NCBI GenBank assembly: GCA_951406725.2
Contig: OX597821.1
Coordinates: 3,534,001 to 3,598,000, forward strand
Length of the DNA: 64,000 nucleotides
Direction of reading: 5' to 3'
From: Octopus vulgaris
Lineage: Eukaryota
The notes below the pieces were generated by a model, which saw only the letters and a list, made by a program, of their open reading frames with translations, had not been told where the DNA came from and searched no databases. The position numbers were made by a program, and so were the translations under genes. Shown here piece by piece: positions 8,158 to 47,975 of the stretch (within the stretch, counting starts at the first letter, position 1; the number at the start of each line of letters is the position of its first letter).

Positions 8158-8461
8158 TGTGTATGTGTGTGTGTGCATGTCTCTCTGTATATAAATATAT
8201 ATATATATACATGTAAATATGCATACATATACACAAGCGCACACACTCATTTATAGATATATATACAAGTATATGTATATATTCATATACGTATTACGTA
8301 TATATATATACGTGTGTGTGTGTGTGTGCGTGTGTATGTGTGCGTGTGTGTGTGTGCGTGCGTGTGTGTGTATTTCAGTGAAATATATGAAAGTAGGGTA
8401 TATATGACCTTTTTAATAGAATGCGACAGATTTCATCAAATAAGAGTTCAGAGCAGCTCAC

Positions 8462-10350: not shown

Positions 10351-10551
10351 TGTCCATCTCTAAACAAAAATAAGAAAAAAAACAAAAACATTTATAAATA
10401 ATTTCTAAGGTGAAAATGAGTTAGAATAAAGAAATAAGTGTGTCAGGTTTCTAACAAAAAATAGATTGTCACAATAAAATAAAGTCGCAAAATGAGCAGC
10501 TGTCAAAGTTTATCATATAATTTACTAAAAATTTCATACTTGACAACCTAA

Positions 10552-10868
10552 CATTATTTACATTGTTTACATTTGACGGATATTTGTCCTCGTCTTGTTT
10601 GTTAACACAACGTTTTGGTTGATATACCCTCCAGCTTTCATCAGGCGTCTTGGGGAAATTTCGAACCTGGTTTCTCATTCCTAAGATATTTTTCGATGTT
10701 AGGAATGAGAATCCAGGTTCGAAATTTCACCAAGACACACTAAAAAGGCTGGAGGGTATATCAGCCGAAACGTTGTGTTAACAACAAACAAGATGAGGAC
10801 AAATATCCGTCAAATGTAAATAATGTAAATAATGTACATAATTCCCCATCTCTTAAATATAGAACTGT
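10552..10868. mobile_element. Palindromic Penelope-derived element, two inverted copies each with a hammerhead-like motif
   Basis: Arms ~10552-10684 and 10699-10836; composite consensus gacac-CTGATGA-a-GGCTG..CAGCC-GAAA-cgtt-gtgtt. Confidence 0.7.
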
Positions 10869-13220: not shown

Positions 13221-13580
13221 TGAAGGCGCATGGCTCAGTGGTGAAGGTGCATGGCTCAGTAGTTAGAGCGTCGAGCTTACGATCGGGAGGTTGTGAGCTC
13301 GAATCCCGGACCGGGCTGCTTGCTGTGTTCTTGAGCAAGACACTTTATTTCACGTTGCTCCAGTTCACTCAGCTGTAGAAATGAGTTGCGATGTCACAGG
13401 TGCCAAGCTGTATCGGCCCCTTCACCTTTCCCTTGGATAGCACTGGTGGCGTGGAGAGAGAAGGCCGGTATGCATGGGTGACTGCGGGTCTTCCATAAAC
13501 AACCTTGCCCGGACTTGTGCCTGGGAGGGTAAATTTCTAGGTACAATCCCATGGTCTGTGTCGTGACCGAAGGGGGTCTC
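13221..13580 (+). mobile_element. tRNA-derived SINE family C, first ~21 bp duplicated
   Basis: ggcgcatggctcagtgg..ttagagcgtcg..gagctcgaatcccgga A/B boxes; second copy inverted at 15268-15598. Confidence 0.85.
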
Positions 13581-15267: not shown

Positions 15268-15595
15268 AAGACCCCCTTCGGTCATGAATGACCATGGGAT
15301 TGCACCTAGAAAGTTACCCTCCTAGACACAAGTCCGGGCAAGGTTGTTTATGGAAGACCAGCAGTCGCCCATGCATACCAGCCTCCCCTCTCCGCGCCAC
15401 CAGTGTTATCCAAGAGAAAGACAAAGGTCGATACAGCTTGGCACCTGTGACGTCGCAACTCATTTCTACAGATGAGTGAACTGGAGCAACGTGAAATAAA
15501 GTGCCTTGCTCAAGAACACAACACGCAGCCCGGTCCGGGATTCGAGCTCACAACCTCACGATCGTAAGCTCGACGCTCTAACTACTGAGCCATGC

Positions 15596-15598
<3 letters not shown>
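15268..15598 (-). mobile_element. SINE family C
   Basis: Reverse-complement match to 13243-13580; flanked by (TA)n. Confidence 0.85.
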
Positions 15599-19731: not shown

Positions 19732-19939
19732 AGGAGTCGCTGTGTGGTAATTAGCTCGCTTACCAACCGCATGGTTCCGGGTTCAGTCCCACTGCGTGGC
19801 AACTCGGGCAAGTGTCTTCTACTATAGCCTCGGGCCGACCAAAGCCTTGTGAGTGGATTTGGTAGACAGAAACTGAAAGAAGTCCGTCGTATATATGTAT
19901 GTGTATATATATATATATATATGCATATATATATATATG

Positions 19940-20015
<76 letters not shown>

Positions 20016-20158
20016 TACACATACATATATACGACGGACTTCTTTCAGTTTCTGTCTAGCAAATCAACTCACAAGGCTTTGGTCGGCCCGAGGCTATAGT
20101 AGAAGACACTTGCCCAAGTTGCCACGCAGTGGGACTGAACCTGGAACCATGTGGTTGG

Positions 20159-20192
<34 letters not shown>

Positions 20193-40513: not shown

Positions 40514-41085
40514 CCTTAAATCCTTAAATCCTTAAAAATGTTTTAGCCCGAAGGCCGCGGCCATGCTGGGGCACCACCGCTGAATGAGCTACACTAGTTT
40601 GTGAATCCACCTCTGATACGTGTCACTTGATCAACAAGGGAGTTCGATGCTGCTGCCCGCATCCGTGCCTCCTGTCGTGAGGTAGGTTCATCTGGGACTC
40701 CCAACAAGAAGAGATCCAGTTTAGTTTTAAAGAAACCCACATCCACACCATGTAAGTCTCTCAGGCATTTAGGGAGGATGTTAAAAAGCTGTGGTCCTCT
40801 GAAACCCAAGCTGTTGCAGTATCTGGACCTGTATTTTGATGGTGATGTTGGTATCCTTGGCACCACGCAGCGGCGCCCCGTTCTGCGGTTGGAGTAACTT
40901 TGAATGCCAAAGTTTGGGACAAGACCCTCCAGGATTTTCCAGATGTATATCACTGCATATCTCTCCCACCTCCGCTCCAGGGAGTAGAGGTTTAATACCT
41001 TCAGAATTTCCCAGTAGCTGACATTTTGCATTGAGACGATTTTCTTTGTGTAGCTTCTCTGAGTTGCTTCGAGTTCTGCTTCGAG
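40514..41085 (-). mobile_element. CR1-group LINE 3' end with (TTTAAGGA)n tail
   Basis: LEATQRSYTKKI..SYWEILKVLNLYSLERR..GPQLFNILP..FKTKLDLFL..PDEP; 3' UTR motif gtgccccagcatggcc. Confidence 0.88.
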
Positions 41086-41117
41086 TATGCATATATATAC
41101 ATACACTAGGATACTAG

Positions 41118-42028
41118 TGAGCTGGACATAATATGCAGGTGGGCTGAAAAGAGTGGCGTGCAGTTCAATGCTGGAGAGTTTCACGCTCTATAAGGCTGGA
41201 TGCCGTGCCCAATGGGTACACTGGACCTGGGGTGACTGCAGTCTCGGAGGCACAATCGGTGCGGGACCTGCGTGCTTACATGAGTGGTGATGCAACCTTT
41301 CATGTGCATGTTGCTAGATTAGCATTGAAATGTGGGCGGCTGACCGGATGGATTCTTGGAACTTTCGGGGCAGGGGACCAGGAGACCATGATAATCCTGG
41401 GCCACTTTGACTGTTGCTCTCGGCTGTGGTCACCATCCGGTGTCAAGCTGATCACAGAACTTGAGGCGATCCAACGAGGCTGCACGGGGGGGATAGCCTC
41501 TGTGCAGCATATAAGCTATAGGAAAAGACCAAGAGATTGAGACTCTATTCCTTAGAGCGTAGATGAGAAAGATATGCCATAATATACATCTGGAAGATCC
41601 TAGAAGGAATTGTCCCAAACATTGGCATCGAGAGTTACACAAATGCCAGAACTGGGCGCCACTGCATAGTGCCAAGGACTCCAAATGTGCCATCAAGATG
41701 TAGGACGAGATACTGTGATAGCCTGGTCTTCCGAGGCCCACACCTCTTCAATATCCTCCCGAAGAACCTAAGAGACCTGCATGGGGTGGATGCAGATGTC
41801 TTTAAAATGAAACTGGATCTCTTTTTGTCAGGTGTCCCAGATGAACCAACTTCACGGCAGGAGGTGCAGATGAGGGCAGCTGCATCGAACTCTCTCAAGC
41901 ACCAAATGGCAGTTGCTAAAAAGCATTCGTGAAATAAAATCATGTAACAACACCAAATGGCGGTGCCCCAGCATGGCCACAGCTTGTGAGTTGAAACTAG
42001 ATAAATAAAAATAATAAAAAAATAAAAT
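41118..42028 (+). mobile_element. CR1-group LINE 3' portion (RT C-terminus to 3' UTR) with an A>G-rich segment
   Basis: ELDIICRWAEKSGVQFN..SVRDL..DCCSRLWSP..LEAIQR..GPHLFNILP..FKMKLDLFL..PDEP; same 3' UTR motif. Confidence 0.88.
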
Positions 42029-42122
42029 AATATATATATACAAAAATATATATAAACCTAACTTTACACCTTAATTCACATTTATGATTCATATTATTTG
42101 TAACCCCTTCCCTCCCGTTACC

Positions 42123-47374: not shown

Positions 47375-47975
47375 ATCAGCCGCCTGGACTACTGCTCCCA
47401 ACTATGGTCACCACACAAAGTAAAATTAACAGCAGACCATGAAGCAATCCAGTGAAGCTACACAAAGAAGATCGTCTCATTTCAACAGCTCAGCTACTGA
47501 GAAAGGCTGAAAGAGCTAACTGTCTACACCTCGGAGTGAAAACGGGAGAGATATACACTAAGATGCATCAGGAAGATCCTGGGATTGTGTCAAATTTTGG
47601 CATTGAAAGCTACACATACACCAGAACAGATCACCTATGCACAGTACCAAACATGCTAACAATACAGTCGTGCTTCATGACCAGTTACTTCAACATCTTG
47701 GGTTTGAATGGCCCACAGCTTTTTAATATTCTCCCAAAAATCTTGAGGGACCAACGCAAAGTCGATGTAGCTTTCAAAACAAACATGGCTGCTTCCCTAT
47801 CGAGAGTCCCAGATGAACCTAGCCCGCAGCAGGAGGTACAAACGAGGGCAGCGACATCAACCTCTCTTATTCACTAAATGTCACTAAATATCACTGGAGG
47901 CTCTCAGTAATAAAAACGCGGCAAAATGGCCTGGCTCCAGCATAGTCGCAGTTTTGAGCTGAAACCGCTAGAAAA
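47375..47975 (+). mobile_element. CR1-group LINE 3' end, older copy
   Basis: SRLDYCSQLWSP..EAIQ*SYTKKI..GPQLFNILPKILRD..RVPDEP; degenerate 3' UTR motif. Confidence 0.85.

Follow-up and report, generated by a model that had tools for sequence, protein, structure and literature searches.

Clustered A-to-G changes in LINE copies of Octopus vulgaris probably record ADAR-edited RNA reverse-transcribed into germline DNA

ADAR enzymes convert adenosine to inosine in long double-stranded RNA (dsRNA), and reverse transcriptase reads inosine as G, as described in PMC5224506 and PMC2873906. Among the closest described systems are new L1-made pseudogene insertions in cultured human cells, 3 of 235 of which carried copied ADAR edits (PMC11702581). 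ADAR edits fixed by reverse transcription are also described for avian retroviruses (PMC12925331) and for proviruses of bovine leukaemia virus (PMC8025556). Here we analyse a 64,000-nucleotide stretch of the Octopus vulgaris genome (the window; assembly GCA_951406725.2, contig OX597821.1, forward-strand positions 3,534,001 to 3,598,000, or C8:3534001-3598000 in the 2.8 Gb genome scanned), in which a truncated copy of a long interspersed nuclear element (LINE) carries a dense, one-stranded cluster of A>G changes. We regard it as very probable that the cluster records an ADAR-hyperedited LINE RNA that was reverse-transcribed into germline DNA. As in the L1 insertions, the edits would have been copied by a LINE reverse transcriptase, and they are clustered and one-directional. 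Those insertions were experimental and somatic, with edits in inverted Alus of passenger mRNAs, whereas the present copies are natural members of an invertebrate reference genome (one of them, L126, is seen in two studies), the changes lie in the coding sequence and 3' untranslated region (UTR) of the LINE itself, and one case is antisense. The retroviruses described in these papers likewise carry clustered A>G changes that are attributed to ADAR and became fixed via reverse transcription, with about half of the adenosines changed. They differ in being exogenous viruses with long terminal repeats (LTRs), affected in somatic cells or culture and mostly in U3 or inverted repeats, whereas the octopus elements are endogenous and non-LTR.

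APOBEC editing of the DNA of vertebrate LTR retrotransposons, as described in PMC4866542 and PMC2873906, also leaves strand-biased, motif-bearing deaminase scars in genomic copies, and these too are easiest seen in young copies. It produces G>A via C-to-U deamination on cDNA and affects LTR elements only, whereas the octopus changes are A>G, likely stem from an RNA step and lie in LINEs. APOBEC-type G>A scars are reported as absent from the 19 invertebrates considered in PMC4866542, which serves as a negative control. Transcriptome hyper-editing in metazoans, extreme in octopus (PMC5625713), resembles the present case in its clustered A-to-I changes, its origin in repeat-derived dsRNA, the depletion of upstream G and the involvement of short 3' LINE fragments that act like short interspersed elements. 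What that work describes is a transient change in RNA; here the change is in DNA, and the preference for a downstream G is stronger than it reports for octopus. A search of the main texts of articles, few of them from subscription journals, turned up no account of ADAR-type tracts inherited in LINEs of invertebrates, and a mammalian precedent for such tracts may exist.

The window copy belongs to a family that we label A and occupies 41117-42003 on the plus strand, with a start that possibly lies at about 41104. It is 5'-truncated and comprises the C-terminal part of the reverse-transcriptase open reading frame (ORF) and the 3' UTR; its other divergence from the family majority is about 3%. 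The hyperedited tract extends from 41135 to 41491 and reaches to about 20 nt from the 5' truncation. It is followed by a 3' part (41492-42003) that comparison with the family copies shows to be unedited, and by an A-rich tail that passes into a TA-rich tract (42004-42040), a microsatellite within which no target-site duplication is readable. Two deletions lie within the tract (41188-41395), one of 13 nt near 41191 and one of 18 nt near 41393, the latter flanked by two GTCCT words. Because other family copies likewise have deletions in the same two intervals, these show no link to editing.

The window copy was compared with a reference built by column majority from the 29 best family copies other than itself. 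Against it, 41118-41510 contains 45 A>G changes among 130 As, beside 5 T>C, 3 G>A, 2 C>T and 6 transversions, whereas 41511-41995 contains 3 among 150 As, and those three are common to 3, 14 and 7 of the 29 copies. Within 41130-41495, 45 of 121 As read G (43 of 117 in a BLAST alignment). The excess is highly significant both for the tract against the downstream part (Fisher test, p=3.5e-15) and for A>G against T>C (p=1.2e-8). Background over the tract interval is low, with 178 G at 8,198 As in 68 reference copies (2.2%) and a maximum of 7 per copy, and no comparable cluster was found in any of the 29 sister copies. A true one-stranded A>G cluster, which an earlier note had proposed from the letters of the window alone, is therefore confirmed, as is its strong excess over T>C and G>A. 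The family motifs that this note had assumed upstream were also right, since the family reads YKWAEKNSMQFNAEK and LRTFRTRD. One of its listed changes, M>V at 'tct gtg', drops out as an edit, since the family majority already has GTG there; and the bias does stop sharply at its 3' end, with the last edit at 41491 and not near 41510. An APOBEC-type cluster of G>A on the sense strand was not found, the tract holding 3 such changes only. Tract edits alter the amino acid in 27 of the 35 codons hit. Being 5'-truncated, the window copy is dead regardless of editing, and truncated copies of this kind do not demonstrate inactivation by editing.

The bases next to the edited sites are biased as well. 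In the window tract, the numbers of edited sites among all As by 5' neighbour are 14/20 for T, 18/40 for A, 8/30 for G and 5/31 for C, so that U or A (32/60) is preferred over C or G (13/61; p=3e-4), with C the most avoided; As followed by G are edited at 17 of 27 sites. The tract thus shows two features of an ADAR hyper-editing footprint, a cluster of one type on one strand and a biased 5' neighbour. Depletion of an upstream G is described as the ADAR motif in PMC5625713. That surviving As tend to follow G, as had been noticed at the outset, does not reach significance in the window copy on its own (8/30 against 37/91, p=0.20) and becomes evident when five edited copies, introduced below, are pooled (23/99 against 140/286, p=6e-6).

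Two other origins of the cluster, a real subfamily state and an artefact of assembly or RNA polishing, were weighed against its privacy and its presence in contigs. Some A>G changes seen in other copies turned out to be states of a subfamily, labelled A2, that differs from A at many A/G sites. The Gs of the window tract, by contrast, are essentially private: each occurs in 0-2 of the 29 copies, bar two sites found in 4-5, and a genome-wide search with the tract alone gave no near-identical copy, the next best reaching only 83%. As to an artefact, of the 24 sequencing runs listed in a run search, six contained some of its words and two a large share (X1 0.50, X2 0.43). X1 and X2 are two samples of one study; their kind is guessed ('DNA?'), and either may be the assembly's own source. 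When contigs were aligned to 40900-41700, X2 gave a 252-nt contig (41106-41357) that spans 25 edits with 0 differences, and X1 a 312-nt contig (41052-41362) that spans 26 edit sites without a gap and with 4 differences. Two of these lie outside the tract, at 41089-41090 in the TA-rich spacer (41081-41116) that separates the copy from its upstream neighbour, and two were not located. The listed long contigs stop short of 41363-41491. Contigs of this kind cannot prove absence: X3 and X4 gave none for the window tract, and X2 and X7 none over the tract of L126. No RNA run carrying the tract was listed, which says nothing either way on expression. For L126, a contig from a different study shows 2 differences over 649 nt; a 179-nt stretch in X1 shows 0. 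The covered part of the window tract is hence carried by contigs that are probably DNA, so that the tract also exists outside the assembly, one sample having a differing flank; L126, in contigs from two studies, is present in more than one animal if the runs are DNA as guessed. Taken with the privacy of the Gs, these results make an artefact or a subfamily state exceedingly improbable.

Further edited copies were found, as the earlier note had predicted. The genome was scanned with short motifs that require at least two edits, each match was compared with its own subfamily, and reversed-motif controls gave 0 matches throughout. Sense-strand scans yielded 2 matches (the window copy and L062), 3 (the same two and L095), 3 (L158, L160 and L159), 13 and 0, with none genome-wide for a motif at site 2116; two antisense-strand scans yielded 1 match each, in both cases L126. 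Besides the window copy, five copies are clear. Four of them are edited on the sense strand. L062 has 17 of 44 As edited in 136 nt (reference 1780-1915), a stretch that is otherwise unchanged; in L158, a family D copy, 11 of 20 As are edited within 42 nt at its own 5' truncation; in L160, of family B, the count is 18 of 87 over 316 nt; and L171 shows 9-10 A>G in its last ~70 nt. The fifth, L126 (family D), is edited on the antisense strand. Five sense-strand copies are weaker: L095, where 37 nt contain 4 private A>G, two of which the search itself demanded; L177 (1456-1820) with 6 in 19 nt directly after an internal deletion of ~150 nt; L183 with 8 and nothing else in 308 nt, three of these changes also occurring in another subfamily; and L174 and L175 with 7 each near the 3' end. 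Edited tracts recur in this way in three related families, A with A2, B and D. A fully degenerate version of the first-site motif matches 2,538 copies, 2 of which have both test edits; with missed edits allowed for, perhaps some 0.2% of copies are edited.

Several apparent cases were rejected. Most A>G changes of L095, which could have passed for a long, lightly edited copy, are subfamily states, as are the 3' changes of L062, whose tract is confined to 1780-1915; L159 is too diverged to call. Among the 13 matches of one motif scan, seven show no more than 1-2 changes around the motif, L182 is a member of a different subfamily, and one G that this motif requires is itself a subfamily state. 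A fixed 3' boundary with the 3' end spared does not hold either, since L171, L174, L175 and L177 have their tracts in the last ~70 nt. The sense-edited copies extend to the 3' end of the element, L062 having a short deletion just before its tail. The tract abuts the 5' truncation in the window copy and L158 and lies within 150 nt of it in L062 and L160; as 6 of 30 unselected copies also end no more than 150 nt upstream of the test site, this proximity as a sign of reverse-transcriptase stalling is a lead only.

Pooling the tracts of the window copy, L062, L158, L160 and L126 gives edited fractions by 5' neighbour of 48/63 for U, 58/109 for A, 34/114 for C and 23/99 for G (U/A against C/G, p=5e-12). 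As followed by G are edited at 53 of 99 sites against 110 of 286 for the others (p=0.01) and make up 33% of edited sites. Per tract, 21-60% of target bases are edited, a share similar to the 'nearly 50%' that PMC12925331 gives for avian retroviruses edited by ADAR. A burst of misincorporation by reverse transcriptase, for instance under imbalance of dNTPs, would explain why the tracts sit in retrocopies and have sharp edges. It does not account for the identical 5' U/A preference on both strands, nor for the near absence of other substitutions in the tracts of young copies (0 in L062; 4 beside 74 in L126), and we give it almost no credence.

L126 (1286-2060, C11:64319945-64320719) differs from the other copies in strand. 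It carries 74 T>C and 0 A>G, the former together with 4 other changes over 571 nt that are preceded by 186 nt identical to the majority; the other copies of family D are mostly more than 99% alike. On the antisense strand, 74 of 124 As are edited, and the 5' neighbours read on this strand (U 24/26, A 23/29, C 16/36, G 10/28) are ADAR-like. The sense-strand pattern of the earlier note accordingly holds for the window copy and not for all scars. L126 ends ~55 nt short of the end of the element, without a tail, and is followed by a ~120-bp segment that recurs ~300 bp further on. Most simply, an edited antisense RNA would have served as template here, primed from its unedited end at the TA-rich flank; use of the other strand of the duplex as template fits the missing 3' tail. 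The strand of L126 would also suit an adenosine deaminase acting on DNA, be it on the cDNA strand of an RNA:cDNA hybrid or in R-loops, since the A>G changes sit on the strand that corresponds to first-strand cDNA in target-primed reverse transcription, and ADARs are described as editing DNA in hybrids in vitro (PMC12925331). If DNA had been deaminated, the sense strand should carry T>C; the window copy and nine others have A>G there instead, and L126 itself lacks the 3' tail expected from normal priming. We judge this origin very unlikely.

From the cluster, its strand, its sharp 3' edge, the neighbour bias, the contigs and the recurrence, all of them observed, we infer ADAR as the enzyme and RNA as the edited molecule, which supports the hyperedited, reverse-transcribed LINE RNA that the earlier note had put forward. 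The proposed route would start from a LINE RNA partly paired with antisense LINE sequence, either from an inverted copy at the source locus or from an antisense transcript. ADAR would deaminate ~37% of the adenosines in the double-stranded stretch. Target-primed reverse transcription would then start at the intact 3' tail, and the element's reverse transcriptase would copy ~510 unedited and ~390 edited template bases, reading inosine as G, before it stopped; the product would have entered the germline.

The adjoining copy upstream bears on the source of the duplex. It belongs to family B, lies head-to-head with the window copy at 40525-41080 on the minus strand, beyond the spacer between the two 5' ends, and is unedited (1 A>G, 0 T>C), with 98.6% identity to its own family majority. 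Being less diverged than the A copy (~3%), it was probably inserted later. It pairs with 41455-41997 at 71% and overlaps only the last ~37 nt of the tract. As a duplex partner this copy was rejected: it is unedited, is nearer its own family majority and pairs outside the tract. L062 likewise has an unedited inverted B copy on its upstream side, while 1.8 kb downstream of it lies an inverted A2 copy. Such neighbours could suggest writing in place after insertion, in which a host transcript through the locus folds into a hairpin, is edited and converts the resident copy by RNA- or cDNA-templated repair. This would account for editing on either strand (L126), for the two internal tract edges (L062 and L160) and for the inverted B copies upstream of both the window copy and L062, the latter with its A2 copy downstream as well. 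The B copies are unedited, however, and that of the window pairs almost wholly outside the tract. Moreover, no inverted relative from family A, B or D lies within ~10 kb of four edited copies (L158, L160, L095 and L126), and the 3-kb loci of five more (L171, L174, L175, L177 and L183) contain none. Of 11 edited loci, 2 have an inverted neighbour, against 2 of 59 unedited ones; the latter baseline is understated because long copies fill the flanks. Conversion in place is, on balance, very unlikely.

The same absence of a duplex partner, both around these nine copies and in the window, where the 71% B copy is the only inverted relative, counts against reverse transcription of an ADAR-edited RNA, and several other observations weigh in the same direction. 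The family RNA by itself folds only modestly (z -2.15, with 1 of 20 shuffles as good), and a human L1 reporter RNA is described in PMC5224506 as being without editing. The 3' G share of 33% exceeds the 20-25% given for octopus hyper-editing in PMC5625713, in targets of different composition. Site-matched scans found 5 sense copies and 1 antisense copy, a strand bias that is not significant, and the contigs over the window copy cover only 25-26 of the 45 edits and come from one study.

Some edits may have been copied onward. An identical set of seven A>G changes in the final ~60 nt is found in L174 (C6:123206663) and L175 (C11:84959186). L174 is one change away from an A2 copy, L103, over reference 1690-2350, and L175 carries states of another A2 sub-branch; single A>G changes at 2410, 2415 and 2420 recur across sub-branches. 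In this one pair, either an edited 3' end was re-used (by template switch, by conversion or from an edited source) or a terminal hairpin is a site-selective hotspot. At reference 904-906, three adjacent As are G in L095, in L104 and in the long copy of L163, all of an A2 sub-branch, which changes to G a K that families A and B retain; possibly this edit was passed on by a source element. Among subfamily lineages, A>G changes number 10 against 3-5 T>C in two lineages, with no such excess in two others; the sequence is A-rich, and the comparison is not conclusive.

The family is assigned to the non-LTR retrotransposons on its ORF and on the form of its copies. PF00078 RVT_1 was found in two ORF pieces of the sister copy L003 (E 1e-11 and 9e-16). 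The copies share a common 3' end with a simple-repeat tail, and their 5' truncation is variable, the starts of 30 unselected copies ranging from 363 (the limit of the fetched flank) to 1889. A, A2, B and D are labels given here to related families, of which only the 3' 2.4 kb was assembled; family A numbers at least 3,405 first-look candidate copies in the genome. Families B and D are very young, with 99.5-100% identity over 1.5-2 kb among many of the top-scoring copies (L064-L092, L128-L156), and to judge from their sequences are probably still active. Elements of the A, B and D type insert into TA tracts or microsatellites and frequently adjoin other, older LINE copies; an A-type neighbour is present at 4 of 29 other family B loci. 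Elsewhere in the window, 47378-47950 is an older relative of the same LINE clade, 66% identical to the edited copy over 47523-47883. The window also contains a near-perfect palindrome of 400 bp at 19761-20160 (95%), whose arms show 10 differences, 5 of them G/A with the same direction. Smaller palindromes lie at 10551-10835 and 1825-2011, and the segments 13246-13579 and 15269-15598 form an inverted pair (91%).

RNA editing is usually lost with the RNA, and here it has seemingly been inherited, at a frequency high enough to be counted. Each edited copy would be a single-molecule record of germline ADAR activity and of the extent of dsRNA, and such copies make the role of ADAR for LINEs testable from genome sequence alone. 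The antisense copy L126 points to a non-canonical template for the LINE reverse transcriptase. Edited copies could also confound maps of RNA editing, since their reads, if mis-mapped to unedited sisters, would mimic hyper-editing. According to a 2016 review, whether ADAR editing contributes to how Alu subfamilies evolve, or to suppression through mutation, had yet to be determined (PMC4982230). For the octopus we tentatively raise a possibility that we hold to be rather doubtful, namely that ADAR repeatedly mutates active LINE lineages in the germline, with edits reaching source elements and either strand of the duplex serving as template. If this is true, RNA editing helps to shape the evolution of LINE subfamilies and leaves a datable DNA record of past germline dsRNA.
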